57,505 nucleotides of DNA from Candidatus Tayloriibacteriota bacterium. Its GTDB lineage: Bacteria > Patescibacteriota > Minisyncoccia > Phycocordibacterales > PALSA-1337. Every line of letters begins with the position of its first letter. The first letter of the stretch is position 1. Made by a program: the position numbers and the translations under genes. The notes below the pieces were generated by a model. The model had not been told where the DNA came from. It searched no databases and was given only the letters and a program-made list of their open reading frames with translations. Below are positions 12,937 to 31,724 of the stretch, piece after piece. Location: positions 1 through 57,505 of the forward strand of contig JBAXUB010000007.1 in the NCBI GenBank assembly GCA_037129895.1, given 5' to 3'.

Positions 12937-12962
12937 ACTGAGTGTAAAAAAGTTGCAATACC

Positions 12963-12971
12963 TGCTATTAT
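12963..12971 (+). promoter_or_regulatory. Candidate extended -10 box (TGcTATTAT), 6 nt before the trpS ATG
   Basis: TG-n-TATTAT at 12963-12971, spacer tacagc, ATG at 12978. Confidence 0.35.
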
Positions 12972-12977
12972 TACAGC

Positions 12978-13940: not shown

Positions 13941-13950
13941 CTCTTGAATC

Positions 13951-14673: not shown

Positions 14674-14746
14674 TATTCAATCTCACAGTACGTTTTGACT
14701 TTGATGAATATTTCCCATTAAGTGTATTTTCGATTATAATTGAAAT

Positions 14747-15391: not shown

Positions 15392-16478
15392 TCGCCAAAA
15401 AATCGATCGATTTTTTTTGATTTCTGCTGTAGTACTAACGATTGCTGGCTTTACGGTATTTTTATCAGCGTCACTAGGTCTATTGGCGCAAAGTGGCGCG
15501 AACTTTGGTGTAGTTGCTGCAAAACAGGCGGTAAGTCTGTGTATTGGTATCACATTTTTCTTCATTTTTTCAAAGATTCCATATATTCAACTAAAGAAGT
15601 ACGCTCTGTTCATATTACTCGGCGCAATCGGTGTCAATTTGCTACTATTCATTCCTCAGCTCACCCTACATTATAATGGTGCCTCGAGATGGCTCATGAT
15701 AGGGACACTCTCTTTCCAGCCTTCAGAATTATTGAAGATCGCATTTATTATTTACATCGCTGCTTGGGCCCATTTTGCCAAAGATAAACTATCAACAATC
15801 AGATTTGGTTTGATGCCTTACATTTTATTGGTGGGAATCTTGAGTGCTTTGTTGTTAGCTCAATCAGACACAGACACACTAGTCATTATCTCAGTTACAG
15901 GCTTCATAATGTTACTTATTGCTGGTGTAAAGATGCGTCATATGGCTATAGGCGGGGTTTTGTTGATATTACTGGTGGTTTGTGTTGTCATTTTCCGTCC
16001 TTATGCATTACAGCGCGTCAAGACATATCTCAATATAAGCAAAGATACCCAAGGGTCGAGTTATCAGATAAATCAATCATTGATCGCTATAGGTTCTGGA
16101 CAAATATCAGGAAGAGGTTTCGGACAAAGTGTTCAGAAATTTGGATATTTGCCACAACCGACAGATGACTCGATCTTCGCTGTCGCAGCTGAGGAATTCG
16201 GATTCATAGGGAGTATCATTTTGCTTATCTTGTATTTAATGTTTGCGGCTAGTTCGTTTCGTGTAGCGAATAGAGCGCCAGACATCTTTGGTGGTTTACT
16301 TGCGATCGGTATAGCAGTTCTCATAGTGATCGAATCATTCATGAATATGGCAGCAATGATGGGATTACTACCATTGTCGGGTATACCACTACTTTTCGTA
16401 TCTCATGGTGGTACAGCACTCATAATGGCACTCATAATGGCAGGAATGGTAGCCAACGTATCGAAGCACAGGAGGTAG
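15381..16478 (+). CDS. SEDS-family peptidoglycan polymerase (RodA/FtsW)
   Basis: 365 aa and polytopic. Motifs QPSELLKI, SQSDTDT, GRGFGQS, LPQPTDDSIFA and PLLFVSHGGT. RodA and FtsW cannot be told apart from sequence alone. Confidence 0.9.
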   Translation: MSHSRQKIDRFFLISAVVLTIAGFTVFLSASLGLLAQSGANFGVVAAKQAVSLCIGITFFFIFSKIPYIQLKKYALFILLGAIGVNLLLFIPQLTLHYNGASRWLMIGTLSFQPSELLKIAFIIYIAAWAHFAKDKLSTIRFGLMPYILLVGILSALLLAQSDTDTLVIISVTGFIMLLIAGVKMRHMAIGGVLLILLVVCVVIFRPYALQRVKTYLNISKDTQGSSYQINQSLIAIGSGQISGRGFGQSVQKFGYLPQPTDDSIFAVAAEEFGFIGSIILLILYLMFAASSFRVANRAPDIFGGLLAIGIAVLIVIESFMNMAAMMGLLPLSGIPLLFVSHGGTALIMALIMAGMVANVSKHRR

Positions 16479-16621: not shown

Positions 16622-19600
16622 ATGAAAAAAATATTTCATTGTCTATTATTGGTTTCGATTGTAACTCTCGCGATAATTCCGATGACGACATTTGCTGCGA
16701 CATTGGTTACACCAGGGACGACAGATTCCACTGGTCAAAGTAGTGACCCAGTGATGATAGCATCACTCTCTATAGATAATCTGAAATATTCATATAATGA
16801 CGTTGATCGTAAGATTCAGGTCAGTTTCGATTTATCGAATGAAGATCAATCATTGAATAATGTCGGTTATTCATTGTTAGTATCATCTGATAATGGTGCA
16901 GAGAAGTCATTTGTATATAACAGGAATCTGTTTATAGCATCAAATAGCAAGATAAGTGAGAGTATAGATGAAACTATACCGGATTATATTTTTGGAAACG
17001 TAAATATATTAGTACAGGTTAGTAATTCGAGTGGTATACCTCTCGGCGTTCGTATGCGTGACGGAATTATGGTCAGTAAAATCGTAGACAGTATCCATGT
17101 GGATAGCAGTTCATGTTATCTCACTGTATCTGGAAATACCAAGTACAATCTGATACAAGGTGTTGATGTGGATCCTACTGAACAACTTTTTTTGAATTGT
17201 GGAATCATAGGAAATATACAGACACCATTTTTGCTCACATTGCCTAGTATGCGGACGTATGAACGATCTATCTCGGGTCCTCTCGTGGACGATTCTACAC
17301 TACCTACTATCACTCTGAAAAAGGGCGACTCGACGATCAAAATTCCAGTAAAGATTCCTACAAAACCTCAAGCTTATAGCTCTATAATCTCTGTGCTCAA
17401 TGGAGATAAATCTGATAAATCTATAGGTGATATTGAATTTCATTATGTGGTGAGGGGCGAAAGCGGTACGATGAATATGGCTCAAACAGATAAAACATCT
17501 TATGTGAAAGGTGATATAGCGCAATTGAAAATATTATGGTCACCAAGGGCTGACTATTTCCCGGGAGCGAGAGCCTCTAGTACAGCGGTAACAGGATCTT
17601 TGTCTGGAACTGTTTATATGACCTCAAACGGTAGTTCTTGTGGTGATCCAGTGTCGTTTACTCCTTCAAAGGAGACTGAAGAAGGTATAAACTTGAGTGT
17701 TCCGATGAAGATTGACTGCAATGGTTTCAGTACGAGAATAGAGGTCAAGGATGCGGATAGAGGGAATGTTATTGTCGATACGTCATTCAATACACCTGTT
17801 GATCCGAATTTCGGTAGAATCGACTGGCTTCAGTATATTATAGCTATTGGGTCTCTGTTAATAGCGATCATTCTGATAGTTGTTCTCATACGATTGAAGA
17901 AGAAACATTTGGATTCAAAGGTTTTACTCATTGCTTTCTTTCTTTTGGCATCAACCGGGATCGTGCAAGTGGCTAGGGCGTATACTCTGACATCGTGGTT
18001 TGCTTTCGATGGGTATGTATGGGTTATGACATTGTTGGGTGATTTTGAAGTTTATAGGTCAAGTGATTCTGCAACTTCTGGTTTCAAAGTTGGGGATAGT
18101 TTCACGGTTCATGATTACAAAAATAAGGTGTTTATGAGATGTGGCAATGGTGCTTATGTTGCTGTAGTTTCGAAAGTAACAGTTACAGGACCGACTGGTC
18201 AAAAACTGTTGTCTACATCATATCGAAAGTGTGATGGTGTAGAAGGAAAATATTGCATAAATGACGCTACTTTTTCGGCAAATTCTGTGGGAACCTATAC
18301 GATCACTGTGACATTTAAGATTGTTGATAATCAAGCAGGTTCATCGAAGGACATGCCGTTTACAAAAACGATCACGATAAGTCCAGAACCAGGTGCTGCC
18401 CCAGCTGCCCCACCAACACCGCCAGCGTCACTTCTACCTGTTACTGGCCTAGCTTCATCGATAGGTAGTTGCGGATCAAAGACGATCAATCTATCGTGGG
18501 ACATAATGTCTGGCGCAACACAGTATGTTGTTACTCGCACAGGAAGTGGTTCTACTAAGATCGTATACATAAACCAACCAGTATCAACCACTAGAGCGAG
18601 TTTCAGCAGCACGGGATTATTAGATGGAGCCCCTTATCAATATAGTGTCAAAGTTCGCTATCCGTCACCGTCAGGATTGTCACCAGCAGTAACAACGAAT
18701 GTCACGTCACCTGCCGTTTGTGGGCAACCTACGGTGTCATTGAGGGCAACTCCAGCGTCTATAACGGTTCGTGGTGTATCAGCACTTACATGGGAATCAG
18801 AGAACGCGACATCGTGTACCACCTCAGGAGATTGGCTATTGCAACAGACAAGTCCCGCGAGTCCATTTGGCGGCGTTAGTACCGGCGTACTGAGTACAGT
18901 GAAAACTTATACATATAATATTGTATGTACTGGTCCAGCTGGTACGAGTCCTGTCAGCACAGCAACAGTTACTGTGGTTCCAGTTAACTGCATTGCGAAT
19001 CCATTAGCTTCGGGATGTCCCCAAGTGCCAGTGGCAGACCCAGTTATTTCCTGTAGCATGACAGCTAGTCCGACTTCGGTAAACACTGGTGGTACTACGA
19101 CTCTTACATGGAATTCCAGTAATGCAACAATTTGCGTTCCACCTACAGGTACCGGGAGTTCTGGGACCACACCGTACTTGAATGGTAGTACTACTGTGCA
19201 CCCATATTCTGGTCATAATACTTTTACTTTGTCATGTTCAAATACTGCTATATTAAATTCTTGTAGTGCTCCAGTTACTGTGTCGATAAATGCTGGCGGA
19301 GAAGCACCAACTGCTTCGCCAAATATATACCTATGGTTTGGTAACAGATCAACACCGTTGATCGCTGATCCAGATGTATTGGGTCATATGAATAATCAGA
19401 CACCATTGACGGTTGTATTTGGTGAGGATGTGCCTATCAAGTTTAGTTGGCCAGATACAGTGACTAGGTGTAACGGTTATGAATTATCTGGACCAGATAT
19501 GACCACTTCTGGATGGACTGGGCCACTTAGTCGTGGTACGACCAAGGATACTACAACTGATCAATTGTTCGGTTCGTCTACGTTACGAAACCTTCCAGTT

Positions 19601-19744
19601 GGTACGTACAACCTCAAATTGAGTTGTGGCACAGATAGAACGGTAACCTCAGCTGACGGAACATCCTCCACAGTTACTGATACGAGTTTCAGTGCAAATT
19701 CAATAAAGTTATATGTCATCAAGTCTCTAATAAATGAAGACTAG
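16622..19744 (+). CDS. Giant secreted/membrane-anchored multidomain protein, paralog A
   Basis: 1040 aa from the ATG at 16622 (MKKIFHCLLLVSIVTLAIIPMTTFA signal peptide). The upstream ORF extension is rejected. Order of parts: an N-domain of about 400 aa shared with paralog B, an internal TM hairpin ending ARA|YT, a beta domain, a Pro-rich linker, an FN3-like module, two SW-S-NAT-C modules, and the shared C-terminal module. Confidence 0.85.
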   Translation: MKKIFHCLLLVSIVTLAIIPMTTFAATLVTPGTTDSTGQSSDPVMIASLSIDNLKYSYNDVDRKIQVSFDLSNEDQSLNNVGYSLLVSSDNGAEKSFVYNRNLFIASNSKISESIDETIPDYIFGNVNILVQVSNSSGIPLGVRMRDGIMVSKIVDSIHVDSSSCYLTVSGNTKYNLIQGVDVDPTEQLFLNCGIIGNIQTPFLLTLPSMRTYERSISGPLVDDSTLPTITLKKGDSTIKIPVKIPTKPQAYSSIISVLNGDKSDKSIGDIEFHYVVRGESGTMNMAQTDKTSYVKGDIAQLKILWSPRADYFPGARASSTAVTGSLSGTVYMTSNGSSCGDPVSFTPSKETEEGINLSVPMKIDCNGFSTRIEVKDADRGNVIVDTSFNTPVDPNFGRIDWLQYIIAIGSLLIAIILIVVLIRLKKKHLDSKVLLIAFFLLASTGIVQVARAYTLTSWFAFDGYVWVMTLLGDFEVYRSSDSATSGFKVGDSFTVHDYKNKVFMRCGNGAYVAVVSKVTVTGPTGQKLLSTSYRKCDGVEGKYCINDATFSANSVGTYTITVTFKIVDNQAGSSKDMPFTKTITISPEPGAAPAAPPTPPASLLPVTGLASSIGSCGSKTINLSWDIMSGATQYVVTRTGSGSTKIVYINQPVSTTRASFSSTGLLDGAPYQYSVKVRYPSPSGLSPAVTTNVTSPAVCGQPTVSLRATPASITVRGVSALTWESENATSCTTSGDWLLQQTSPASPFGGVSTGVLSTVKTYTYNIVCTGPAGTSPVSTATVTVVPVNCIANPLASGCPQVPVADPVISCSMTASPTSVNTGGTTTLTWNSSNATICVPPTGTGSSGTTPYLNGSTTVHPYSGHNTFTLSCSNTAILNSCSAPVTVSINAGGEAPTASPNIYLWFGNRSTPLIADPDVLGHMNNQTPLTVVFGEDVPIKFSWPDTVTRCNGYELSGPDMTTSGWTGPLSRGTTKDTTTDQLFGSSTLRNLPVGTYNLKLSCGTDRTVTSADGTSSTVTDTSFSANSIKLYVIKSLINED

Positions 19745-19776
19745 GATGTTAATTGTGCATGTAGCTAAGCATTAAA

Positions 19777-22700
19777 ATGAGAAAAATATTTTACTTCATT
19801 ATACCCCTATGTATAGCTGTGCCGATCATGGTATTTGGTCAGACGACGGCACCTACAACCTCTTCGCGGGCAACTGCGCCACAGAGTAATGTCGAGCCTA
19901 CGACGGTGGCTTCTCTGTCTATAGAGAATCTAAAGTATTCATACGATAATGTGACGAGACAAGTATTGGTATTCTTTGATCTGGTTAATGATCAAGAGTC
20001 GATCCCAGATGTAAACTACTCACTATCGATAATCTCTGACAATGGGATTAGAAAGGACTTTGTCTATAATAAAAATATTTTCTTGGCAAAAGGTGCATCT
20101 GTTTCTCAGGGTATAAATGAGATAGTCCCAGAATATATATTTGGAAATATTACTCTTTTGTTGCAAGCAAAATCTTCAAGTGGAGTTCCACTTGGTGTTC
20201 GTATACGTAAGGGAATAGAGATAAAACCCACTTTGAATACGGCGTACCTAGATAGTAGTTCATGCTATCTATCTGTGGCGGATTCGACGAAATATAACCT
20301 TACTCAAGGAGTTGATATAGATCCAACGGAACAATTGTATATAAACTGCAGTGTTATCAATATATTGAAGAATCCGTACACACTCGTACCTAAGATCAAG
20401 ACTTATGAGCGTTCAATATCTGGAAAATTGGTTGAGGAGTCCAAATTATCCGAAACATTCATAGATAAAGCGACATCAACCGTCAAGATATTGATCCCTG
20501 TTCCAAATAAGCCACAAGCTTATACATCTATACTGTCGTTGAATAGTGGTGGTATTTCTATAGGTGAAGTTTCATTACACTATGTTGTACGAGGTGAGAG
20601 TGGTACAGCTAGTCTAGTCCAGATGGATAAATTGTCATATTTATCTGGAGACATAGCAAAGGCAAAGATACTTTGGTCACCTAGAGCTGATTCATTTCCA
20701 GGTGCGAGAGCATCTTCAACAGATGCGAGTGGCTCATTCATGGGCAAACTATCTATATTGAAGAGTGGAACACCTTGTGCTGACCCTGTCACATTTTCAC
20801 CATCGAAGACCGCTGACCAGAATATAGAACTCGATGTACCAATTACTACAGATTGTAATGGCTATGAGACCAAGGTTGAAGTAAAAGACTCGAATAATAA
20901 TGACAGTATTGCTGCGGTTTCCTACAAGACTCCTGCGGTTATATTCCCATTGATGACAAATTGGCTACAATATGTCATAGCTCTTGCTGTACTCATCGTT
21001 GTATTAGCAATCTTAGCCGTTGTCGTCGCTATTATAAAGAGGAGAAGGAAATTTATAGACTCGATATTCGTATCGGTGGTAATACTCTTCCTGGTTTCAT
21101 TCTTGTCTGTTAGAGATGTCAGAGCGTATTTATTTACGGTATTGTTTACGAGCGACGGAGGTTCAGTATATATGACATTTTTCGGTGATTTTGAAGTGAC
21201 GGACTTTAATAGTGAAGCGAAGACAACATTCATTAAAGGCGCGGGTGTAAGAATAACCGATTACAAGACAAAGATGTTTCTAAGATGTGCGAATAATGGT
21301 GGAGCCTATGATTCCGTACAGTCAAAAGTGACCGTGACCAGAAACGGCGTAAGCCAGATATTGAGAAATTATACGTCTGTATGTGATTCCTCATCGTTAT
21401 CAGATTATTGTTACAATCATGTAGATTGGTTACCAATATATTCTGGCACGTACACAGTCACAGTTACTTTCAGGGCATTAGAGACGAATTCTACAGCGTG
21501 GGGTAATGAATATTCATATTCAAAGACGATAACAGTCATTGAGCCTAAACAATTGGATATTTCATTTACTGGTACTGGAGCAAGTCAGGGTAAGGTAAAT
21601 CTAGCCAATGCATCAGAATCATCATGTATTGGTCCTTCTCTGTGTACGGTGCCAGTAGCAGTCAATTCTACGGTAAGCGTAACTAATGCTATAGCAAGAT
21701 CGACCACACTGAATACCAACAATCTAACATGTACAATATCGAATCCAGGTTCGTACTATATGGCTACATACAGTGGTTCAATATCAGGCGGTACAACACC
21801 TTATGTGATATATCTGAAAAATGTCATCACTAATGGTTCGCCGGTCTCATACTATGTGTCATATGTGCCGAGTTATACGCAATTCAGGAGTCTTCGTACT
21901 GACACATCATCTGCGTATGTGGAGGTTTCATCCGCTGATGGGCAAATGAGTCAAGTGAGTTGCGGAGGTGCTAGTGTACCCAACCTGACCAGAGGGTATA
22001 CTCAGTTCACTGGATGGGCAGGTGCATGTAGCGGAACAGGTAGTTGTTCTGTTTTGATGAATACTGATAAGAGTGTCCAAGCAGGATATAATTGGGTTCC
22101 ACTTACTCCGAACCACAATCCATCAGTGCCAGTCGTTACTTCAGCTTCTAGTTGCTCTGATATTACGGGTAACATGCCGTATAAGCTGTCATTTGTTATG
22201 ACTGACCCCGATTCTGATCAGGTTCAATTATATGAAGACAAGGGATATCCATCATATTATCAGCCCTATGGCAGTATGATGAATTCTGGCTCGTCCGTTA
22301 TCTATTCAAAGAGTTACACAACTACGGGGGTAAAGACGATTAACTTCAAAGTATATGATGTAAATGGTGCCAATTCTACAATATATTCAACTACAACAAC
22401 CATAGTCGCAAAATGTGCACCAGTAGTGACACTTGTAGCTGACCCTATCTCTATAGTGACCAGTGCGTCTTCGAGTCTGTCTTGGTCATCAGTTAATGCG
22501 ACAGCCTGTGTAACCTCTGGAGATTGGCCTTCGCCACAGACGAGTACAACCAGTGCAAAGTTGACCGGAGGTAAATTGAGCACTGGCATTTTGTCCGTTG
22601 CAAAGACATATTCATACAGTATGAGCTGTACGGGTACAGGTGGTAAGAGTGCTACGAGTACGGTGACGGTGTCGGCAGCCAATGTTGTACCGTTAGCCCT

Positions 22701-23595
22701 CACGTGTAGTGCAAATAATACGTCAGTACCTCCGCAAGGCCTAGAGACTATATTTAGAGGTGCAATTTCTGCTAGTGATCCAGGTACTGGACCCTATTAT
22801 TGGAATAACATGACTTCATCGTCGGTATATAACGCCACAAATACGACGATATTCTATCAAAATGGTACGACTTCACCACCGACATTCAGTGTCAAAGACT
22901 CATCCAATCCGCAAAGAATAGGTAACGTAGCTTGTGCACCGATACGTTTAGAAACTACATTGATGAAGTGTGACCTGAAGATAGACGGTAAAGATAATAA
23001 TGTGGTGGCCTCTCCAGGTTATAATATGCCAGTGACTTGGTCTTCAACTAATGCTCTAAGTTGTATAGTGGACCCTATGGACTGGAAAGATCTGAGTGGT
23101 GGTAAGGATGAATATAATGTTAATGTTACTGAAACAAATACCTACACGTTAAGTTGTACGAACACTAGAGCAACCCCACCAATTTGTACTGACTCTATTA
23201 CTCTTAGAATGGTTACTGGTGATGGTATCCCGAATGCGGTAGTCTGGTTTGATTCTCAGTTTCCGAATGTTTCTGAAGCACCTGATAATGTTCAGGCTTC
23301 TAAAAAAACGTTATCTGTTCAAGAGGGTACCACAGTTAAAATTGGAAATAGTTGGAATGAGAATCTTATTGCATCATGTAAAGGTGTTACGATATCTGGT
23401 CCTTCGAATAATGGATGGACTAATACCTCTTTGCCGAATAACACTTTAAAGATTCTTCCTTCAAATCTATCTGTTGGTACATATAAGTTAAGCATGACTT
23501 GTGACGGTATACCTTCTGAAGAGAGTACTGTAGAAACTTATACGAGCAACACGATCCGTCTCATAGTGACAAAGTCTATACTAAAGGAAAATTAA
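19777..23595 (+). CDS. Giant secreted/membrane-anchored multidomain protein, paralog B
   Basis: 1272 aa. Signal peptide, N-domain alignable to A (NLKYSY, TYERSISG, HYVVRGESGT, ILWSPRAD.FPGARASST), and an internal TM hairpin ending VRA|YL. It also has an InlB-B-repeat-like FTGWAGACSGTGSCSV segment, a PKD-like module, SW-S-NAT-C modules, and the shared C-terminal module. Confidence 0.88.
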   Translation: MRKIFYFIIPLCIAVPIMVFGQTTAPTTSSRATAPQSNVEPTTVASLSIENLKYSYDNVTRQVLVFFDLVNDQESIPDVNYSLSIISDNGIRKDFVYNKNIFLAKGASVSQGINEIVPEYIFGNITLLLQAKSSSGVPLGVRIRKGIEIKPTLNTAYLDSSSCYLSVADSTKYNLTQGVDIDPTEQLYINCSVINILKNPYTLVPKIKTYERSISGKLVEESKLSETFIDKATSTVKILIPVPNKPQAYTSILSLNSGGISIGEVSLHYVVRGESGTASLVQMDKLSYLSGDIAKAKILWSPRADSFPGARASSTDASGSFMGKLSILKSGTPCADPVTFSPSKTADQNIELDVPITTDCNGYETKVEVKDSNNNDSIAAVSYKTPAVIFPLMTNWLQYVIALAVLIVVLAILAVVVAIIKRRRKFIDSIFVSVVILFLVSFLSVRDVRAYLFTVLFTSDGGSVYMTFFGDFEVTDFNSEAKTTFIKGAGVRITDYKTKMFLRCANNGGAYDSVQSKVTVTRNGVSQILRNYTSVCDSSSLSDYCYNHVDWLPIYSGTYTVTVTFRALETNSTAWGNEYSYSKTITVIEPKQLDISFTGTGASQGKVNLANASESSCIGPSLCTVPVAVNSTVSVTNAIARSTTLNTNNLTCTISNPGSYYMATYSGSISGGTTPYVIYLKNVITNGSPVSYYVSYVPSYTQFRSLRTDTSSAYVEVSSADGQMSQVSCGGASVPNLTRGYTQFTGWAGACSGTGSCSVLMNTDKSVQAGYNWVPLTPNHNPSVPVVTSASSCSDITGNMPYKLSFVMTDPDSDQVQLYEDKGYPSYYQPYGSMMNSGSSVIYSKSYTTTGVKTINFKVYDVNGANSTIYSTTTTIVAKCAPVVTLVADPISIVTSASSSLSWSSVNATACVTSGDWPSPQTSTTSAKLTGGKLSTGILSVAKTYSYSMSCTGTGGKSATSTVTVSAANVVPLALTCSANNTSVPPQGLETIFRGAISASDPGTGPYYWNNMTSSSVYNATNTTIFYQNGTTSPPTFSVKDSSNPQRIGNVACAPIRLETTLMKCDLKIDGKDNNVVASPGYNMPVTWSSTNALSCIVDPMDWKDLSGGKDEYNVNVTETNTYTLSCTNTRATPPICTDSITLRMVTGDGIPNAVVWFDSQFPNVSEAPDNVQASKKTLSVQEGTTVKIGNSWNENLIASCKGVTISGPSNNGWTNTSLPNNTLKILPSNLSVGTYKLSMTCDGIPSEESTVETYTSNTIRLIVTKSILKEN

Positions 23596-23627
23596 ATTAT
23601 TAATGTGGGAATTAAAATCAAAAAACG

Positions 23628-26600
23628 ATGAAAATTATTAGCAAATCGATCATTATAATTCCACTACTTGCATTATCGCTATATATTTCGCAAGCAAATG
23701 CTGTTAGAGCCCAATCAAATGATGTTGAACAGTTAGAAGTTACAAGCTGTTTTGATCATTACAAATTTGGTGGTGTAGAGGTTAGTTTTATATCTTCACC
23801 AAGCGAGCGATTTTCGGCCGGTACGAAGCTGGATTTTAGTGGAAACATAATTAATACAAATGATTATCCGATTCTCGATGTGATGATCTACGCAAAGATA
23901 TTCAAGAGAAATACGGTAAATAGTCAAGATGATCAGGTAGATCAATTCATTGTTATGGACGGTTTCAATCTAAAAGCTTTGGATAAAAGATCGGTCCATT
24001 TTACTTGGTCAATACCTGCATACGCTCTAAGCGGTGACTACACATTGAAGACGTATGTTATTTCCAGTCAGCGATTCAATCATAGCGGTCTATCATTTAC
24101 TGAAGATGTTTCGGCAAGTATGATGAGTTTTGGCGTATACGGAGAGCGGAAAGGTATATTGAATTTCGATAAAGACAAGGTTTATGTGAATGATGCGAAA
24201 TTTAACTTTGCCGCATTCATTCCGCAGGTAGATCGATATAAACCTATTGACGTTAAAGCATTAATATCCAACCGTTCCTCCAATGATGAGTCGGCTATTA
24301 TCACTTACAAATTGTATAAATGGGACGGTATTCGGCCTGAAAACCTTGTCTCAAGTTCAGAAGAGATTCGAACTATCAAGGCAAATAGTGATTTGGATGT
24401 ATTCTATAAAATTGAGGACAATTCGACTTCAGTATATTATCTGACAATCGAAGCGCGGTATAAGGATACAAAATCAATTCTCAACGTTAGAGTTGCTAGA
24501 AATGGAGCTGATGTACCCAGGATCAATTCAGTGGGTGTCAGTAAATATCCAATAGATGTAAATACGACAATATTTTCTTGTGTACATAATACAGGGCAAA
24601 CCACGGAGATTGACGGTTACCATATGGGTATAGAATTGAGTAATGAGTATGGCGATACCCTATATCAAGGAGAATATCGGGGAAAAATTTCTAGTGCTGT
24701 AATGGGGTTAGAGAATGTTCTTTCAGGTGTAAAAGAACCTTTGGGTAATTTCGATATACAAGTAATGCTATACGACAAGGATGATGTCGTTATTGATAAA
24801 GTTGTGCTTATTTATGATTGCAGTATTATCGATCCAACAAAGTGTAGTAGTTCATCTACTTTAATCTTGAACTATATAGGACATAATTTGTTGGTATCAT
24901 TTATAATAATGGCATTATTTATCATATTGACAATGACGATCATTACTACCAGACACAAGAAGATCCAACACAATCATCCCACACTAACTATGCTGTTACT
25001 TGGTGGAATACTTTTTGGTAGTGCATATGTCAATATACCGTATTTTGTAGAGGCAGAAGAAGTTAAACAAAATATATTTTTACCCAATCCAGGTGTAGGT
25101 GATATTTCGTATCTTTCTAATTTCATGAGATCCAGCGGCACTAATTCTGCAACCATGAATACAGGTTTTTTTGGAGGTGCTAGTGGATATAGTCAAATGT
25201 ATCTTACTGTTAATACATATTATGGGATAAATATTTATAAGAAGTCTTCTTACCTTGGGATGTACGAGAAGATTGGAAGTGATGCTATAGTCAAGGTCGG
25301 TGAATTTATTAAAATTGAGAGTTGGAATATAGGTGCTTCAGGCAGTCTGGCAAACAACGTATCTTGGAATGGTTCGGGTTCCGCAGCTGATACACCATAC
25401 GTATATTGGGTTTTGCGTGATTATCAAAAACCCTATGATAATACGGGGTGTAATGAAAATGATTACGTATTTAAGACCACCTACCCCAACCATCCTGGCA
25501 GAAAATATCGTTTCTACTATCCAGTTACTATAACTATACCGAGCTTTAATACTAGCGGTACGAGCGCAAGAGAGACTTCCGTAGGCACAAATGAGTGGAT
25601 GGTTACAGATGCCGGTAAGATAGATTTTACTGCTACAATAGGTGCGACTAAGGCTCATCCATATATTGCTAGTGAGTTTGATATCTGTGAAATACAGAAC
25701 CAAGCTATAACAGATGGAGTAAATCATATAGTAATAGACGGCCATACTTTCAATTTTACATTGACTGCTGTACCCCCTACACCTGCAAATCAAGCACCAA
25801 GTATACCAACTGCTAGTGTAACTAGTTCCTGTGCGGACTCGACAGGAAGCAGTCCAATTACTTTTATAATTTCTGCAACTGATCCTGAGAGTAATCGTGT
25901 AAAATACAGCATAGATTACGGTGATGGCGGCGGATGGACATCGACGGGAATGTTTTATGATTCTGGTCAGCCAGTTACGTATTCTAAGAATTATGCTTCA
26001 CCAGGAACTAAACAAATAAGTATCAAAGCAGAAGATACAAATGGAAGTGTGTCGTCAGTATTAACTGTTACTTCAAACGTTTTAGCGAATTGTAACCTTT
26101 TGAATGCTACTTGCAGCCTTAATCCGCCTAGTGGTGCGCTATCTAGCGACGGGGGTAGTGTAAGATTCACTGAAACTGCCAATACGGATACGTCAAAATA
26201 TGTCTATCAATGGAATAATTCAACACTTTCTAATCAGCCAAATAATCTATCGCTTGTATATCCACAGAATACAACTAATAAAGCTATAGTATCGCCTGGA
26301 CCAGAATTGATTCTAACTAGAAAGTCTGACCTTGTCTCAATGAGAATACAGTGTGGCAGTGTAACTACGGCACTAAATAATACGCTCTCATGTGGTTCAT
26401 TGACGGTTAGTCCACAGTCGATCCCAGTAAATGGAACGGTATATATTTCGTGGAAGTCTACGAGTAATGCATCGAGTTGCCTCCTAAACACTGTCTCGGT
26501 AGCGACATCGAGTGGCAATCTATCTGATAATCCAAGTCAAAATACTACATATTCATTACAATGTACCAATTCAAATACTATACCGACAAGCTGTAGTTCA

Positions 26601-27026
26601 AACAGTCAGATTGTAATTATAACTAGACCAGCCAACTCTGGAAAAGTTAAACTATTAATATCTAGATCAAACGCGACTACATTATCGGTGACTGATCTGA
26701 CGGATGCGACATTGGGAAATACATATTACACGTCTTCAAATAAATTTCTTTCCGTGAGACTTGGCGAGTCGTTCAAGTTGCAGACAAACATCGGGCCCGA
26801 TTTTCGAAGCTGTTCAAACAGTATCTCAAAAAGTTTAACTCCGTCTGCTAATGAATGGTCAGGTATGACGTCTACCTCAACTTCTTATAGTAAGACCCTC
26901 GCGACTGATTCAAATACTGAATTGGGAACATATATATTCAGAATTTCGTGTATTGATGATGTGGGGACGATTGCATCTAGCTCAGTCAAGTTGAATATTA
27001 CAAATACTGTATTGAATGAACTGTGA
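23628..27026 (+). CDS. Giant secreted/membrane-anchored multidomain protein, paralog C (distinct N-domain)
   Basis: 1132 aa. Signal peptide (ends NAVRAQS), a different N-terminal beta-rich region, and an internal TM hairpin ending VEA|EE. It also has a PKD-like module (DYGDGGGW), one SW-STSNASSC module, and the shared C-terminal module. Confidence 0.85.
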   Translation: MKIISKSIIIIPLLALSLYISQANAVRAQSNDVEQLEVTSCFDHYKFGGVEVSFISSPSERFSAGTKLDFSGNIINTNDYPILDVMIYAKIFKRNTVNSQDDQVDQFIVMDGFNLKALDKRSVHFTWSIPAYALSGDYTLKTYVISSQRFNHSGLSFTEDVSASMMSFGVYGERKGILNFDKDKVYVNDAKFNFAAFIPQVDRYKPIDVKALISNRSSNDESAIITYKLYKWDGIRPENLVSSSEEIRTIKANSDLDVFYKIEDNSTSVYYLTIEARYKDTKSILNVRVARNGADVPRINSVGVSKYPIDVNTTIFSCVHNTGQTTEIDGYHMGIELSNEYGDTLYQGEYRGKISSAVMGLENVLSGVKEPLGNFDIQVMLYDKDDVVIDKVVLIYDCSIIDPTKCSSSSTLILNYIGHNLLVSFIIMALFIILTMTIITTRHKKIQHNHPTLTMLLLGGILFGSAYVNIPYFVEAEEVKQNIFLPNPGVGDISYLSNFMRSSGTNSATMNTGFFGGASGYSQMYLTVNTYYGINIYKKSSYLGMYEKIGSDAIVKVGEFIKIESWNIGASGSLANNVSWNGSGSAADTPYVYWVLRDYQKPYDNTGCNENDYVFKTTYPNHPGRKYRFYYPVTITIPSFNTSGTSARETSVGTNEWMVTDAGKIDFTATIGATKAHPYIASEFDICEIQNQAITDGVNHIVIDGHTFNFTLTAVPPTPANQAPSIPTASVTSSCADSTGSSPITFIISATDPESNRVKYSIDYGDGGGWTSTGMFYDSGQPVTYSKNYASPGTKQISIKAEDTNGSVSSVLTVTSNVLANCNLLNATCSLNPPSGALSSDGGSVRFTETANTDTSKYVYQWNNSTLSNQPNNLSLVYPQNTTNKAIVSPGPELILTRKSDLVSMRIQCGSVTTALNNTLSCGSLTVSPQSIPVNGTVYISWKSTSNASSCLLNTVSVATSSGNLSDNPSQNTTYSLQCTNSNTIPTSCSSNSQIVIITRPANSGKVKLLISRSNATTLSVTDLTDATLGNTYYTSSNKFLSVRLGESFKLQTNIGPDFRSCSNSISKSLTPSANEWSGMTSTSTSYSKTLATDSNTELGTYIFRISCIDDVGTIASSSVKLNITNTVLNEL

Positions 27027-27072
27027 CGGGCGATTAAATGTTATTTATAATAATCAGTAATAAAAAAATCAT

Positions 27073-28236
27073 ATGAGCAAAAGAACAGTTTTACGTGCAG
27101 TATCAATATCACTTGCAATATTTTTCATTAGTTTGTCATTATCGGCATTGGTCCGAGCAGAAACGACTACGTCGACTGGTATTTGTCCAAAAAGGTTTAT
27201 TTGCGTAAAAACAAAAGCGAGTTGTCCTATAGGATATGTTTGTACACCAAATGATGAAAATAGTTACGGAACGATAAAAATGCAGGCAATGACTAGTAAT
27301 ACCAATTATGTACCAGGAACGTGGTATAACAATGCAATTTTAATCAATGATAGAACTATGAATAGCAGTATGTCAACAAATGCGGTGAGAGCGACAAATT
27401 TAGTAGGCACTACTAGTAGTACAGCATCAGTATCTGGTCAAGAAACAGATGCGAATAGTTCGTCTAACAGCGCATCCGCATCGTCTAACCCTGAAGTATA
27501 TTCAGGCCTTGTTACTAGGGATGATAGTGTGTGGCAGCATGCAACGAATTTGTCGTGGACAGCGTATACGACTGATCAACCTGGTGCGCTTATCACATTG
27601 TGTAGATTTCCCATAACTGACGATGGGGCTAGATTGTGGCAACAAGTTTTGAGAGAGCGAGGCATTAATGCAGATTTCTTGACTGATGATTCAACACTCT
27701 ATGTTACTTGGACAGCAAGTTCATATAGAACGTATCTCGCACAATCAAAAACTCAATCTGCAGGCAAGGCTAGCCAGCAATTCCCAGCATCGAGACTTGC
27801 GAGATGTCTAGATTCGGACTATGTATCAAACTTTCCTGAATGGTCTAGTCACTTTACGAGCGTTTTGACACCAAAAGCAGCTCCGTTACCGCCACTTGCA
27901 ACATCGTCTGTATCGTACAATGTAAGTGTGAATTATAGTTCTTTTGCGGCAGAAGCACAGCAAAACCATTACACCTCAATCTATACTGGTTCAGGAACAA
28001 AGATTGTTTCTGTAACGGTATTCAAGTTCAATGATAGTCCTACGATGACAGCTGACCAAGTGATAAGTAACCTGAACAGTCTCGGTTATCGTCCAGCGGT
28101 TATCTCTGAGCTCGCAGCTCTACGAACAGGGTTAGGAATTGTTGCTCTGGGTACTAACCTCGGTGGGAGCTATGGTTATCCAGTCACAGGCACTGGTTCC
28201 AACGGCTCGTTCAATCAAGTGACTGGTCTCGGCTAA
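27073..28236 (+). CDS. Secreted protein with Cys-rich N-terminus. Possibly the 5' part of a frame-disrupted giant-protein gene
   Basis: 387 aa. Signal peptide (LSALVRA|ETT), GICPKRFICVKTKASCPIGYVCTP segment, Ser/Thr-rich. Its stop overlaps the open frame of the next ORF. Confidence 0.7.
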   Translation: MSKRTVLRAVSISLAIFFISLSLSALVRAETTTSTGICPKRFICVKTKASCPIGYVCTPNDENSYGTIKMQAMTSNTNYVPGTWYNNAILINDRTMNSSMSTNAVRATNLVGTTSSTASVSGQETDANSSSNSASASSNPEVYSGLVTRDDSVWQHATNLSWTAYTTDQPGALITLCRFPITDDGARLWQQVLRERGINADFLTDDSTLYVTWTASSYRTYLAQSKTQSAGKASQQFPASRLARCLDSDYVSNFPEWSSHFTSVLTPKAAPLPPLATSSVSYNVSVNYSSFAAEAQQNHYTSIYTGSGTKIVSVTVFKFNDSPTMTADQVISNLNSLGYRPAVISELAALRTGLGIVALGTNLGGSYGYPVTGTGSNGSFNQVTGLG

Positions 28237-28297
28237 ATATGATCGTGTCCCGGCAAATACGGTTGTTCACCCAAATACTGCCCCTGTATTCAATAAT

Positions 28298-29782
28298 GTG
28301 CAGTCTATAGGAGACTGCTACGACATCACAGGGAGTCACCCTGTACAAATATTTATTTCTGTTCGAGACCCTGAGTCTGATCTAATGGCTTTGTGGGTAC
28401 AATATGGTGATAGTGACGGGTATGTAAATACTGATAATGGAAATGCTTTCGGTGGTAATATATCTAAAGATTATTCGTCTATTGGCGACAAAATTACAAA
28501 TATCAAGGTTATTGATGAACACGGTGCAGTTTCTAATATAGTGTCTGTTACTTCAAAAGTTGTAGCGAATTGTAACCCGGCTCCGACTGTTACACTTACT
28601 GCTTCACCGACGCAAGTCGGAACGAATAGTGACTCAGAACTTAGTTGGACTTCAACAAATGCTACAGCATGTGTTACTGCTGGTGATTGGACGGTACCAC
28701 AGAGAGCTACTAGTACAATTAATTATAATACCGGTCCACTTACGATAGAAAAAAATTATACGTATTCAATCAGTTGCACTGGTCCAGGTGGTAAAAGTGC
28801 GACCAGTACGGCAACAGTAACAGCGACGGGTCCTATAACACTAACATGTACGCCGAGTATAGAGACTGTCAGTCCTAATGGAGAGAATGTTACATTTACA
28901 GCAAATATTGTAGGAGTTTCAAAACCTAATTATGATTGGGGTGTGTCCATACTACCAGTACGAGCTATGACACAAAATTCATCATCCGCGTCGTATAAAT
29001 ATCTTGCGGTAAATTATAGTCCAAACAGTACAGGTCCAACATTCCACGTAGTTGATTCGTCAGAACCTCAGCAGCGCAGTGCATCTGTAACCTGTGCAAG
29101 TTTACCGGCATATGTTCCACTAAATATATCATGTAATTTGTCGGCTAATCCGCAATTCTTATTTACAACCGGTAATACTAAACTGTCATGGACGTCGACC
29201 AATGCGACAAGTTGCTCAATTGATAATGTACCAGCTAAGGATTCTAATGTACCTACAGGATCACTGGGAAGTGGGAATATAGTATTAAATACAACATCCA
29301 CCGGAGTTACAAGGTTTACAATGACATGTCTCAATCCACTAGCCGCAAATACTACGTGTAAAAGTTCAGTCGACGTAACAGTCGGTGATGGAACAGCTGA
29401 CGCCATTTTATGGTTTGATTCTCAGTTTACAGGCCAAAATGGAGCACCGTTATTGACCGCCATACAAGCCAAGCCACCTCTCACTGTTAATCAGGGTACA
29501 GATGTAACTATAAAGACAGACTTTGATACGAGCGTTATTGAATCCTGTACTGGTATTAAGAAATCGGGTCCGTCAGGCGCTGCGATGAATATGTGGACAA
29601 CTTTATATATTTCTCCTCAGACAAAGACTGTCACACTGACAGGAACCAGTCTATCGATCGGTACATATGAACTTGGTCTAAGTTGTAAGGGTTACACACC
29701 AGCTGTAGGTACTGCTCAAACATACCCGAGTGACAATACAATCCGTTTGAAGGTTATAAACTCCGTATTACGAGAGATTTAA
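28298..29782 (+). CDS. Paralog fragment with no signal peptide: PKD-like module, SW-S-NAT-C modules and the shared C-terminal module
   Basis: 494 aa from a GTG. The frame is open from 28223, and the upstream translation (PANTVVHPNTAPVFNN) aligns with the linker preceding the PKD-like module in B and C. There is no in-frame ATG and no signal peptide. Confidence 0.65.
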   Translation: MQSIGDCYDITGSHPVQIFISVRDPESDLMALWVQYGDSDGYVNTDNGNAFGGNISKDYSSIGDKITNIKVIDEHGAVSNIVSVTSKVVANCNPAPTVTLTASPTQVGTNSDSELSWTSTNATACVTAGDWTVPQRATSTINYNTGPLTIEKNYTYSISCTGPGGKSATSTATVTATGPITLTCTPSIETVSPNGENVTFTANIVGVSKPNYDWGVSILPVRAMTQNSSSASYKYLAVNYSPNSTGPTFHVVDSSEPQQRSASVTCASLPAYVPLNISCNLSANPQFLFTTGNTKLSWTSTNATSCSIDNVPAKDSNVPTGSLGSGNIVLNTTSTGVTRFTMTCLNPLAANTTCKSSVDVTVGDGTADAILWFDSQFTGQNGAPLLTAIQAKPPLTVNQGTDVTIKTDFDTSVIESCTGIKKSGPSGAAMNMWTTLYISPQTKTVTLTGTSLSIGTYELGLSCKGYTPAVGTAQTYPSDNTIRLKVINSVLREI

Positions 29783-29823: not shown

Positions 29824-29852
29824 TTGACTTCAAGCCTATATTTTGATAGCCT
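29824..29852 (+). promoter_or_regulatory. Candidate sigma70-type promoter for rpsB-tsf
   Basis: TTGACT (29824-29829), 17-nt spacer ending in TGa, then TAGCCT (29847-29852). Confidence 0.4.
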
Positions 29853-29863
29853 ATATGGTACAT

Positions 29864-30562
29864 ATGGATACAAAAAAGACCATCGATTCGATGTTTGCAG
29901 CCGGAGCCCATTTTGGACTTGGCCGCTCACGTAGACACCCAACAGTTGCTCCATTCATTTTCGGTACAAAGAACAGTACCGACATATTCGATTTGGAAAA
30001 GACTGAAGGTTTACTTACAAAAACAAAGACTTTTATCAATACATTAGCCAAGGAAGGCAAGGTTGTTCTATTCGTAGGTGGCAAGAAAGAGGCATCTCAG
30101 AGCGTCAAGAACACGGCCCAGTCACTCAATATGCCTTATGTCGACGGTCGTTGGATTGGAGGCACCATAACCAATTTTGGACAGGTAAGGAAGCGTATAG
30201 AACGCTATGAGAAGCTAGTTTCTGACAAGGAGAAGGGAGAACTTGCAAAATACACCAAGCGTGAGCGTATGCTCATAGACAAGGAGATCGCATCTTTGGA
30301 AAAGATGTTCTTCGGTATAGTATCTCTAAAGAAAGCACCTGATGCACTATTTATCATAGATCCTCGACGTGAGAAGATCGCCCTCAAGGAAGCTTTGGAT
30401 TTCGAAATACCAGTTATAGCCCTTTGTGGTTCTGACTGCAATATTAGTGAGGTCAAGTATCCAGTAGTCGGTAATGACACATCAAAGGCAAGTATACAGT
30501 ACTTCCTAAGTGAGATTTCTACTGCTTATCAGAGTGGAAAAAAAGTACAAGTACAAGCTTAG
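29864..30562 (+). CDS. rpsB: 30S ribosomal protein S2
   Basis: S2 signatures (AGAHFGLGRSRRHP, VLFVGGKK, GRWIGGTITNF, PDALFIIDP). The start could be 29843, 29855 or 29864. 29864 was chosen from the promoter position. Confidence 0.93.
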   Translation: MDTKKTIDSMFAAGAHFGLGRSRRHPTVAPFIFGTKNSTDIFDLEKTEGLLTKTKTFINTLAKEGKVVLFVGGKKEASQSVKNTAQSLNMPYVDGRWIGGTITNFGQVRKRIERYEKLVSDKEKGELAKYTKRERMLIDKEIASLEKMFFGIVSLKKAPDALFIIDPRREKIALKEALDFEIPVIALCGSDCNISEVKYPVVGNDTSKASIQYFLSEISTAYQSGKKVQVQA

Positions 30563-30723
30563 TTTATACAATTAAATGATCGTCCATGTTAAGTCCATTC
30601 CTCCTGCGATATAGAAAGAAACGGATTTCCGAGCTAGAAGATCTGAGTAAAGGCGTTGCCCAATCAGACCCAAAGAAGCAAACATTAACAAGGAAACAGA
30701 TAGATATTCAGTCAAAAACAACC

Positions 30724-31341
30724 ATGCCATCAAATAGTAAACCAACAACTCCAGTTATAACAACAGAATTGATCAAGGAACTTCGCGATCAAACAGGTAT
30801 ATCTATAATGCAATGCAAAAAAGCATTGGAAGAAGCTGGTGGTGATATGGAGAAGGCGCTCGTTATATTAAGGAAGAAAAGTGGCGAAATTTCGGCCAAA
30901 AAAGGGGATAGGACGTTCAAAGCAGGTACAGTACAAGCATACATTCATGCCAATGGTAACGTAGGTACGATAGTCGAATTGAACTGCGAAAGCGACTTTG
31001 TCTCAGGAAATGAGGAATTTATAGCTTTGGCTAGAAATATTGCGATGCACATAACCGCGACAAACCCGAAGTTTTTGAAGAAAGAAGATATAACAGAAGA
31101 AGACAAGCGCGCTGCCAAGGAAGTATTCGAAAACGAGGTCAAAGGCAAGCCAGAAGCAGTAAAGAAAACCATATTGGACGGAAAGTTGAACGCGTACTTT
31201 GCAGAAATGGTGCTGATGGATCAACCATTTATAAAGAATAGCGAGATGACGATACAGCAATTAGTAGATGCAGCAGTACAGAAGTTCGGAGAGAAGATGG
31301 CGGTAGGGAGATACAAGAGATTCAAGATCCTTGAGAGCTAA
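30724..31341 (+). CDS. tsf: Elongation factor Ts (short form)
   Basis: An ATG at 30724 gives 205 aa. UBA-like start ELIKELRDQTGISIMQCKKALEEAGGDMEKA, then the IVELNCESDFV core. The upstream part of the 251-aa ORF is not EF-Ts-like. Confidence 0.9.
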   Translation: MPSNSKPTTPVITTELIKELRDQTGISIMQCKKALEEAGGDMEKALVILRKKSGEISAKKGDRTFKAGTVQAYIHANGNVGTIVELNCESDFVSGNEEFIALARNIAMHITATNPKFLKKEDITEEDKRAAKEVFENEVKGKPEAVKKTILDGKLNAYFAEMVLMDQPFIKNSEMTIQQLVDAAVQKFGEKMAVGRYKRFKILES

Positions 31342-31349
31342 ACAAAAGA

Positions 31350-31724
31350 ATGTACGTAATAATATCAATATTTTACATATCACTCATCGGCATCATCATC
31401 ATGCCGCTTTTGAAGCGTCATGAGGTGAAAACGGGCAAAGCAACGATAGTAAATAGGTTGGGAAGAGGAACGGATCATATATTTCAGCATATCTTTACGT
31501 CTGTTCGTAAGGCGATATCATATGTAAATAAGAAAACATTCATTGCACTAGCTCAATGGATCGCTTACCATATCCTATTCCATATTCGCAAGGTTTATGT
31601 AGATCTGAAACACCTGTTCATCTCCAATCCTCATGGTAAGAAATTGATAGACGCAGTCAGGGGCAGAGGAGATGTAAAGGATCATGGAGCGTCATTCTAT
31701 TTGAGAAGGATCTCTGATAGATAA
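31350..31724 (+). CDS. Hypothetical membrane-associated protein
   Basis: 124 aa, with an N-terminal TM helix and a basic remainder. No recognisable motif. Confidence 0.45.
   Translation: MYVIISIFYISLIGIIIMPLLKRHEVKTGKATIVNRLGRGTDHIFQHIFTSVRKAISYVNKKTFIALAQWIAYHILFHIRKVYVDLKHLFISNPHGKKLIDAVRGRGDVKDHGASFYLRRISDR

Follow-up and report, generated by a model that had tools for sequence, protein, structure and literature searches.

Patescibacteria, or the candidate phyla radiation (CPR), comprise a large share of bacterial diversity and apparently live attached to other cells. To our knowledge, few of their envelope and attachment proteins have been identified, type IV pili aside. Surface proteins built of immunoglobulin (Ig)-like repeats are already known in bacteria as a general kind, and internal signal peptides in polyproteins are textbook matter for viral glycoproteins; we know of no comparable widespread bacterial case of a polyprotein-style internal signal peptide. 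Kuroda et al. reported high expression of secreted proteins with Ig-like and PKD folds in Paceibacteria (PMC10936435), and signal peptidase I (SPase I) of Staphylococcus aureus is reported to cleave LtaS behind an internal transmembrane (TM) segment (PMC12260438). Here, we describe an array of five open reading frames (ORFs), genes A to E, at positions 16622-29782 on the + strand of a 57,505-nt stretch of a Candidatus Tayloriibacteriota genome (contig JBAXUB010000007.1; this whole stretch is hereafter the window), with intergenic gaps of 32, 32, 46 and 61 nt and 4325 aa in sum. We regard it as moderately probable that the array is a hypervariable, recombination-shaped cluster of surface anchor-passenger precursors, which SPase I would split into an anchor and a fibre. 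No description of the fused anchor/internal-signal-peptide/passenger precursor, its occurrence in Patescibacteria only, or the C-terminal tail treated below was found in the open-access literature.

Anchor, internal signal peptide and passenger in genes A, B and C

The original prediction, made from the sequence alone, had described five co-directional ORFs with short spacers and shared modules, all of which were borne out by ORF calls and BLASTP. Its view of the five as paralogues held for A, B, C and E, which are related to one another, but not for D, which is not a paralogue, and E proved to be a remnant (see below). A and B aligned along their whole N-domains as predicted, with 44% identity over residues 1-587 (BLASTP). 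The N-domain of C, likewise as predicted, differs on the same chassis: no homology to the A/B-type N-domain was detectable (hhalign probability of 0.5%), leaving the idea that the two types are homologous unsupported. The homologues of C comprise both short (P0011 and P0014) and long forms (P0012 and P0013), the closest being only 30-34% identical. B and E shared 37.5% identity over residues 789-1271 of B (BLASTP), the PKD modules were 38-43% identical in the B/C and C/E pairs, and the C-terminal modules of A, B, C and E were related to one another with E = 1e-5 to 1e-17 (BLASTP). The Cys-bracketed LxWxSxNAxxC modules were also confirmed in these four proteins, with two each in A, B and E and a variant in C that is longer by one residue (ISWKSTSNASSC). 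Hydrophobic signal-like N-terminal segments were found in A, B, C and D, and double hydrophobic segments in the middle of A, B and C.

The ORF of gene A opens at a GTG at 16559, and the starts of its orthologues match the ATG at 16622. Its passenger consists, in order, of a macroglobulin (MG)-like first domain, a Pro-rich linker, an FN3-like module, two Cys-bracketed LxWxSxNAxxC Ig modules and the C-terminal module. An LPVTG motif lies inside the linker (18434-18448, aa 605-609) and is kept in the orthologue L1a, while L5a has LPVNN; it is probably no sortase signal, as neither a TM segment nor a basic tail stands behind it.

Topology calls combined hydropathy with the positive-inside rule and the conservation of motifs. 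The element in the middle of A, B and C is composed of a strongly hydrophobic helix (TM1), a K/R-rich loop (RLKKKH, KRRRK and TRHKK, respectively) and a weaker second hydrophobic segment (TM2), which ends in VARA↓Y in A, VRA↓Y in B and GSA↓Y or VEA↓E in C (arrows mark putative cleavage sites). Across nine aligned homologues of 22-82% identity, the Ala at position -1 (A453 in A) was invariant and position -3 was always A or V; the -3/-1 rule is the recognition rule of SPase I. The same layout, typically ending in ...A-[KRQ]-A↓D-T-F-T, was found in ~35 distinct family ORFs of Patescibacteria metagenome-assembled genomes (MAGs), labelled as Parcubacteria/Paceibacterota, Moranbacteria, Taylorbacteria, Nomurabacteria, Saccharibacteria or unclassified. 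Among the best 153 representatives of the family, 132 (86%) were long forms with both TM1 and TM2, 81 of which carried A↓[DEN][TS][hydrophobic], and 14 were anchor-only short forms. Short forms end 5-8 residues past the first helix, in both the A/B type (L022, L031 and L037) and the C type (P0011 and P0014).

A split version of the precursor was found in L037 (Ca. Taylorbacteria, CALRAJ010000002.1, 9971-14006), in which an anchor gene and a passenger gene overlap by 14 nt. The first gene encodes a signal peptide, an N-domain, a TM segment and KKRFYENK before its stop codon. The second starts with an ordinary N-terminal signal peptide (MKINNFLKISLFSFFLLIGVFSVGVGEVKA↓DTVD), continues as an Ig-chain protein, and carries no membrane anchor besides this cleavable-looking segment. 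As the second gene begins with a signal peptide, the second helix of the fused proteins has a real signal peptide as its homologue, and on this sequence evidence the giants very probably arose by fusion of a two-gene unit made up of an anchor gene and a passenger gene. Because the split passenger has no other anchor and both the AXA site and the D-T-F-T behind it are conserved, we consider it likely that SPase I cuts the fused precursors at the internal signal peptide. A positive loop before TM2 and [A/V]-x-A were found in all long-form members in the window and the family loci. Thus, of the mid-protein membrane hairpin described originally, the double hydrophobic segments in A, B and C stand, but the second of them is rather an internal signal peptide.

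AlphaFold2 (AF2) predictions were made from shallow alignments (eight sequences for residues 26-398 of A). The N-domain of A (residues 26-398) was modelled as all-beta with three consecutive beta-sandwiches, at a predicted local distance difference test (pLDDT) score of 83.6 and a predicted TM-score (pTM) of 0.76. Foldseek searches of PDB and viral structures retrieved only MG/FN3 runs (C5, alpha-2-macroglobulin, RbmA and phage FN3) with TM-scores of 0.2-0.3 and ~10% identity. An all-beta model was likewise obtained for residues 454-1040, the passenger of A, the pLDDT being ~80 in the first domain, ~61-82 in the first LxWxSxNAxxC Ig module, ~50-64 in the FN3-like module and ~45 in the C-terminal module, and Foldseek retrieved only FN3/Ig strings, including the Aureispira grappling-hook protein.

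Searches of A to E against Pfam and NCBIfam gave nothing above threshold and no enzymatic, adhesin, S-layer or sorting domain, and PDB sequence searches with the five proteins and the family profiles found no enzyme. Placement in a known family was attempted by all three and yielded only PKD-like signals. The module of C scored 22.5 bits against the Pfam PKD cut-off of 27 bits (PF18911/PF00801), and those of B and E had no Pfam PKD match; the family profiles matched solved PKD domains (KIAA0319L, E = 5e-5; 4xed, E = 9.5e-13), and the homologue P0028 passes Pfam PKD. Judged from these profile matches, the module of B, C and E is a divergent PKD-like domain. The FN3-like module of A (aa ~600-700) had no Pfam fn3 match at E<=1, its best Foldseek matches being FN3 strings. 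As to sortase anchoring, the C-terminal 45 aa of A, B, C and E contained no hydrophobic segment (maximum hydropathy of 0.33-0.91), and the only LPVTG is the internal one of A. SLH, CWB2, LysM and SlaA gave no match in Pfam, NCBIfam or PDB sequence searches. The thioester motif C[GL]EQ was not found, and the proteins do not qualify as members of the alpha-2-macroglobulin family. Distant family members contained no enzymatic domain, and their passengers carry PKD, Gly_rich_2 or GBS_Bsp-like repeats. The earlier statement that no enzymatic domain and no known adhesin, S-layer or sorting signature can be recognized agrees with the Pfam, NCBIfam, PDB sequence and fold searches. We are highly confident that A, B and C are non-enzymatic proteins located outside the cytoplasm and built of beta-sandwich modules, in which the base next to the membrane is conserved and the distal part evolves fast. 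The surface location of the array proteins is well supported.

Mosaic variation, the truncated gene D and the remnant E

Two independent metagenome contigs, L001 and L005, share the same scpA-scpB-ftsW ... rpsB-tsf frame with three giant genes each (1045, 1269 and 1293 aa in L001; 1029, 1285 and 1300 aa in L005), and a third relative possesses one 1374-aa gene upstream of rpsB. The number of copies in the slot upstream of rpsB is 1, 3 or 5. Residues 1-720 of C and the whole of D have no counterpart in the L001 and L005 loci. At the DNA level, the window and L001 are colinear with 94.5% identity up to 17903, lose similarity in 17903-18413 (the first passenger domain of A), regain 76% identity up to 22808, show none in 22808-28523, and then are 85% identical through rpsB and tsf. 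Colinearity with L005 ends exactly at the stop codon of B. An apparent break in the B orthologue of L002 (7150-7165), taken at one point for pseudogenization, turned out to be a scaffold gap of Ns and not a mutation.

At the protein level, FtsW, RpsB and Tsf are 98-99% identical to those of L001, A is 81% and B 63% identical, and the third position is restructured. Within A, identity to L001 was 95% in the N-domain, 40% in the first passenger domain and 92% in the C-terminal module. Synonymous divergence (dS) from L001 was 0.11 in scpB, ftsW and the N-domain of A, 0.54-0.79 in rpsB and dnaK, and saturated in the first passenger domain of A and in B; this spread indicates a recombination mosaic. 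That dS ranges from 0.11 to 0.54-0.79 even in core genes (9952-16478 and 29843-31341) suggests frequent homologous recombination between strains. The dN/dS ratios against L001 were 0.02-0.12 in housekeeping genes, 0.14 in the N-domain of A, 0.63 in the passenger of A and 0.51 in E. Furthermore, the first and third giant genes of L001 share a tract of ~150 nt over the hairpin (~11180-11330 and ~18225-18375), which is 97-100% identical while its flanks are 50-68% identical, and which indicates gene conversion within the array.

Since the longest DNA repeat inside the array is only 45 nt with 73% identity, the array is not an assembly duplication; duplication or collapse is ruled out by the absence of long repeats together with the independent synteny in L001 and L005. 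Membership of a characterized family and such an assembly artefact, the two outcomes that the original prediction had named against itself, were thus both examined and neither was found. A diversity-generating retroelement can be excluded as well, as there is no reverse transcriptase among the window ORFs and no template/variable repeat pair, none exceeding 45 nt in the array. No mobile-element, sortase or secretion-system genes were found among the window ORFs, which include the housekeeping genes for a MurA-like protein, two MreB, MreC, RseP, DnaK/J, ScpAB, a DacA-like protein, Ddl and UvrABC. Scans for promoters and terminators gave matches at chance level, and gene starts across the window essentially have no Shine-Dalgarno motif, ATG starts standing behind A/T-rich leaders. 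It is supported that the array is accessory and variable in an otherwise conserved core region.

Gene D showed no similarity to A, B, C or E (BLASTP). Its homologues in other Patescibacteria are stand-alone secreted proteins of 326-443 aa, and the ~19 C-terminal residues kept in six of six aligned homologues (...SAGPF.T....FAAV) are missing from D. Between E and the third gene of the relatives, the match was confined to the last ~500 residues of the latter, with 67% identity to residues 787-1293 of L1c and 47% identity to L5c. Both the N-domain (A/B type) and the hairpin of that gene are normal in L001 and L005; no third A/B-type N-domain was found in the window. The frame of E is open for 25 codons before its GTG, overlapping the last four codons and the stop codon of D, and this upstream part is homologous to the pre-PKD linker of B, C and L1c. 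GTG is the only start available to E, while ATG is used in 33 of the 33 other genes examined; Shine-Dalgarno evidence is uninformative in an organism without such motifs. From these comparisons, we regard E as a 5'-truncated remnant of the ancestral third array gene and not as a designed short member. E may still be translated, and its dN/dS is similar to that of the intact passenger of A.

The simplest reading is that one deletion truncated both D and E at ~28223-28297. C and D would have been gained relative to the close relatives, and a later deletion would have taken away the 3' end of D together with the spacer and ~2.3 kb from the start of the ancestral third gene, joining the truncated D to E. 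As E is a gene remnant and D is both unrelated and truncated, the array consists of three intact members plus debris, not of five members. A 33-nt direct repeat with 94% identity was noticed where the PKD modules of C and E end (26065-26097 and 28545-28577); it lies near the position where homology to L001 resumes (28523) and may be a recombination footprint. The GC content is 36-38% across gene C (23000-26000) versus 40-44% in the flanks, which would fit an acquisition of C from a different lineage.

Two other accounts of this region were weighed against the deletion. A programmed +1 frameshift could make D and E a single gene encoding a signal-peptide-bearing fusion, given the open frame of E reaching into D and the lack of a signal peptide in E itself. 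However, the homologues of D stand alone and possess the conserved C-terminal tail missing from D, which leads us to rule this account out for practical purposes; besides, the 14-nt overlap (CTGGTCTCGGCTAA) contains no slippery run, and the orthologue of E in the relatives is the 3' part of a gene with an N-domain of its own. It is also conceivable that the C-D segment or the D/E joint was mis-joined in assembly and that the real genome is A-B-c as in the relatives. C and D occur on this contig only, within the protein database searched, and both the low GC content of C and the truncation of D and E at one point would fit such a chimera. On the other hand, a contig of 57 kb with flanks that are otherwise colinear would have to contain two mis-joins, the left joint lies exactly behind the stop codon of B, and no repeat likely to mislead an assembler lies near the joints (besides the longest repeat mentioned above, there is the 33-nt repeat, 250 nt inside E). 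As gain, loss and truncation are expected in arrays of this kind, we regard a chimera as very improbable and retain the deletion.

Table 1. Positions of the array genes, their parts and the flanking genes in the window.
Feature	Positions	Strand	Description
ftsW/rodA (SEDS)	15381-16478	+	Upstream boundary of the array; 98% identity to L001
Gene A	16622-19744	+	1040 aa; predicted complete anchor-passenger precursor; orthologues L1a (81%) and L5a (66%)
A, Sec-type signal peptide	16622-16696	+	N-terminal, aa 1-25, ...TTFA↓ATLV; from hydropathy and sequence, cleavage position predicted
A, conserved N-domain	16697-17815	+	aa 26-398; three tandem beta-sandwiches (AF2)
A, TM anchor, basic loop RLKKKH and putative internal signal peptide	17828-17980	+	aa 403-453, ends in VARA↓Y; from hydropathy and conservation
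A, passenger	17981-19741	+	aa 454-1040; all-beta (AF2)
Gene B	19777-23595	+	1272 aa; predicted complete anchor-passenger precursor; orthologues L5b (89%) and L1b (63%)
B, signal peptide	19777-19839	+	
B, N-domain	19840-20946	+	
B, anchor and putative internal signal peptide	20956-21126	+	Ends in ...DVRA↓Y
B, PKD-like module	22096-22416	+	
B, C-terminal module	23044-23592	+	...LKEN
Gene C	23628-27026	+	1132 aa; predicted complete precursor; N-domain non-homologous to A/B, same chassis; not in close relatives
C, N-domain	23712-24857	+	
C, anchor and putative internal signal peptide	24873-25058	+	GSA↓Y or VEA↓E
C, PKD module	25770-26093	+	
C, C-terminal module	26475-27023	+	...LNEL
Gene D	27073-28236	+	387 aa; small secreted protein unrelated to A/B/C/E; 3'-truncated
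D/E deletion joint (putative)	28223-28297	+	Frame of E already open, overlaps the stop codon of D
Gene E	28298-29782	+	494 aa; no signal peptide; covers ~500 of the ~1290 codons of the ancestral third gene, at its 3' end
E, PKD module	28304-28576	+	
E, two Ig modules		+	
E, C-terminal module	29198-29779	+	...LREI
rpsB	29843-30562	+	Downstream boundary of the array; 98% identity to L001; tsf beyond

Elsewhere in the window, two mreB paralogues (45% identical) and mreC are present in this reduced genome (1479-2501, 6296-7360 and 7332-8117). Two ORFs of 124 aa (31350-31724) and 226 aa (31915-32595) have no Pfam match, and their position after tsf is kept in L001, L005 and the contig of P0003. A MacAB-like tripartite set (ABC ATPase, FtsX-type permease and HlyD-family adaptor) is encoded on the - strand (35644-39148) of this presumably monoderm bacterium, and five tRNA genes lie in 55770-57446 (Ala-TGC, Ala-CGC, Pro-CGG and Ala-GGC on the - strand; Pro-GGG on the + strand).

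The family in Patescibacteria and its C-terminal tail

We defined the family by a signal peptide, an N-domain of ~370 aa matching profile A2 and a TM anchor, to which the long forms add an internal signal peptide, a passenger and a Phi-x-E-x tail. A and B possess all of these features, C the chassis only, E the 3' part of the passenger only, and D none. An exhaustive hidden Markov model search with the N-domain profile (A2) across 1.84 billion representatives of 50%-identity clusters matched 1751 clusters at E<=1e-3, 1313 at E<=1e-10 and 927 at E<=1e-30. This result overturned the impression of an extremely rare family that a word-indexed search, with nine relatives of B, had given. All of the 29 family loci found among ~185,000 species genomes belong to Patescibacteria, and the N-domain has no Pfam or NCBIfam model. 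On these profile matches, the A/B N-domain defines a large family seen so far only in Patescibacteria genomes.

The only recurring conserved neighbours of the family genes were further paralogous secreted proteins, with adjacent paralogues in nine loci. A family gene was also found after ftsW/rodA (the window, L001 and L005), near scpAB-ftsW (L017, 12167-15345), directly after PBP2 (L003, 8218-9930) and after ftsA-ftsZ (L013, 4034-6744).

The passengers of the window end in ...LINED (A), ...LKEN (B), ...LNEL (C) and ...LREI (E), and the penultimate Glu was invariant in the passenger alignment. A Phi-x-E-x(1-5)-COOH end was found in 100 of the 132 long-form representatives (76%), while randomly chosen internal positions in these proteins gave 4.4 +/- 2.0 occurrences (maximum 14; 200 trials). 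It is this tail, at the extreme end, that makes up the conserved feature of the C-terminal module. The commonest version is W-[KRQ]-E-V-[A/S/T]-P-COOH, such as WKEVAP. No hydrophobic segment was found behind the tail, and no curated model recognizes it. The same tail is present on non-family secreted proteins adjoining family genes in L030, L042 and L037, and thus is not restricted to the fused family. Those of L030 (4899-5855, ending in ...AWKEVAP) and L042 (10938-12074, ending in ...EWREVKP) are small secreted proteins without the family N-domain, and in L037 an upstream giant of 2103 aa (2529-8840) shares the ...GSFIEF tail with the split passenger. We regard the tail as a candidate sorting, retention or assembly signal. 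In the window, one tail type is common to two unrelated N-domains and so appears to follow the lineage rather than the type of N-domain, which weakens the idea that the N-domain is its receptor.

Proposed processing, alternatives and comparable systems

We propose that the N-domain of the precursor is exported first, that TM1 would then stop transfer, with the short basic loop in the cytoplasm, and that the internal signal peptide would re-start export of the remaining chain. SPase I would cut at both signal peptides, leaving a conserved base anchored in the membrane and, free from it, a variable fibre of beta-sandwiches, the two being made in a 1:1 ratio at the same site. The fibre would be held on the cell surface, where it would be exposed and fast-evolving, and could contact host or partner cells or surfaces as well as be a target for phages or antagonists. 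Actual cleavage, retention of the passenger, the role of the tail and the contact function are what we infer beyond the layout itself. The original prediction of a cell-surface or host-contact apparatus accords with the extracytoplasmic chassis in its former part; host contact is a putative role. On this scheme, a neo-N-terminus is expected behind the internal SPase I site, together with equal amounts of anchor and fibre and a partner that recognizes the C-terminal tag.

Several points weigh against this scheme. The first passenger domain of A was swapped while its N-domain was kept, which speaks against a tight, co-evolving interface between anchor and passenger, and the partner of the tail, as the sharing described above suggests, need not be the N-domain. 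An AXA behind a helix can stay uncut, and the cleavage is deduced from sequence. The C-terminal module was poorly modelled. As for a mechanism retaining the released passenger, neither LPXTG with a TM segment nor SLH, LysM or CWB2 was found. Host contact is proposed from analogy and evolutionary rate alone.

The same observations bear on three other readings, of which the nearest to ours is a permanent helical hairpin in a single uncleaved polypeptide holding two ectodomains at the membrane, with the AXA left over from the fusion. Such a hairpin fits the topology just as well and would also explain the retention of the passenger; Pfam, NCBIfam and inspection of the tail revealed no retention domain. 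A relic should decay, yet positions -1/-3 and the D-T-F-T at +1 to +4 are kept in proteins less than 30% identical, and the passenger of L037, with only a cleavable-looking signal peptide, argues that a free passenger is viable in the family. The hairpin is thus a reading we consider rather unlikely, and somewhat less so than a two-component, S-layer-like envelope, in which the base with its three beta-sandwiches would correspond to SlaB, the passenger to SlaA, and the assembly to a lattice instead of fibres. SlaB, with a signal peptide, three beta-sandwiches and a C-terminal TM segment, is conserved, while SlaA is a soluble, beta-rich and variable protein of ~1400 aa (PMC10903991); the short forms of the family (~430-490 aa) fit the plan of SlaB, and the array stands among housekeeping genes beside rpsB. 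The highly expressed secreted Ig-like/PKD proteins of Paceibacteria (PMC10936435) would also suit an envelope layer if they belong to this family. However, solved structures gave no sequence match save for the PKD modules, a coiled-coil stalk is lacking, the divergent paralogues number three to five per locus and vary in copy number, which is less typical of a lattice protein, and the predicted beads-on-a-string shape favours a fibre over a tile. We regard an S-layer-like envelope as unlikely. A role as an accessory of the cell wall or division, acting with SEDS, class B penicillin-binding protein and FtsZ machinery, is brought to mind by the repeated adjacency to ftsW/rodA, scpAB-ftsW, PBP2 and ftsA-ftsZ noted in the six loci above. 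These are ~6 independent cases in ~30 loci, several of them phylogenetically linked; most loci have no such neighbour, and the upstream neighbour in the contig of P0003 is Band_7. Hypervariability, changes in copy number and dN/dS of 0.5-0.6 are also unlike a partner of core machinery. The links to ftsW, PBP2 and ftsA-ftsZ are weak, too sparse to support a role in the cell wall, and we consider this role improbable.

Setting these alternatives behind the cleaved anchor-passenger precursor, a broader proposal can be put forward tentatively, and we doubt it more than we favour it: a display system common to the lineage, in which a polyprotein of base (three beta-sandwiches in the A/B type) and fibre is split by SPase I. 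The fibre, like other secreted proteins with genes close by, would bear a new kind of sorting or retention tag at its extreme C-terminus (Phi-x-E-x-COOH, typically W-[KRQ]-E-V-x-P-COOH), read by a partner still to be found that would hold or assemble the fibre on the cell surface. The family comprises about a thousand 50%-identity clusters with a rule-like architecture and no Pfam or NCBIfam model. If the proposal is true, the display system could be the protein basis of the envelope layer or the host-attachment fibres of these ultra-small bacteria. Given the mosaicism at the strain level, the genes probably determine specificity for partners or phages, and they would be useful for tracking strains.

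Among known systems, SlaB/SlaA of Sulfolobus is the closest architectural analogue (PMC10903991), the array being known here from sequence and models. Both combine a conserved, TM-anchored protein of ~450 aa with three sandwiches and a large, variable, beta-rich partner, and the genes slaA and slaB are adjacent. Unlike the array, SlaB and SlaA are archaeal and share no sequence homology with it, SlaB has a long coiled-coil stalk, and the two are never fused and have no internal signal peptide. In S. aureus LtaS, a cut by SPase I (SpsB) behind an internal TM segment frees an extracellular domain from a membrane-embedded N-terminal part (PMC12260438), much as we propose for the passenger. LtaS, however, is an enzyme with five TM segments and not a surface fibre; it has no large N-terminal ectodomain and is not known to derive from a gene fusion. 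Gn/Gc of bunyaviruses resemble the array in their alternating stop-transfer and signal sequences, the cut by signal peptidase and the 1:1 yield of two ectodomain proteins (PMC7926653), but they belong to eukaryotic viruses, are processed in the endoplasmic reticulum and are non-homologous, so that the likeness is one of logic only.

Two further comparisons concern the folds. The best fold matches of the N-domain are MG runs such as those of alpha-2-macroglobulin and complement, and many passengers begin with an MG-like 'LDK..Y.PGE' strand; unlike alpha-2-macroglobulin, the family lacks the thioester motif, the bait region and TED/CUB, the TM-scores are ~0.25, and it is not a member. The fibres composed of Ig, FN3 or PKD domains, such as Aureispira GhpA and RbmA, share with the passengers the beads-on-a-string arrangement of beta-sandwiches, the non-enzymatic and extracellular nature and the rapid diversification, at Foldseek TM-scores of only 0.15-0.3 and ~10-18% identity. 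While those fibres use the type IX or type I secretion system or sortase, the family described here combines an anchor in mid-protein with an internal signal peptide and a Phi-x-E-x tail.

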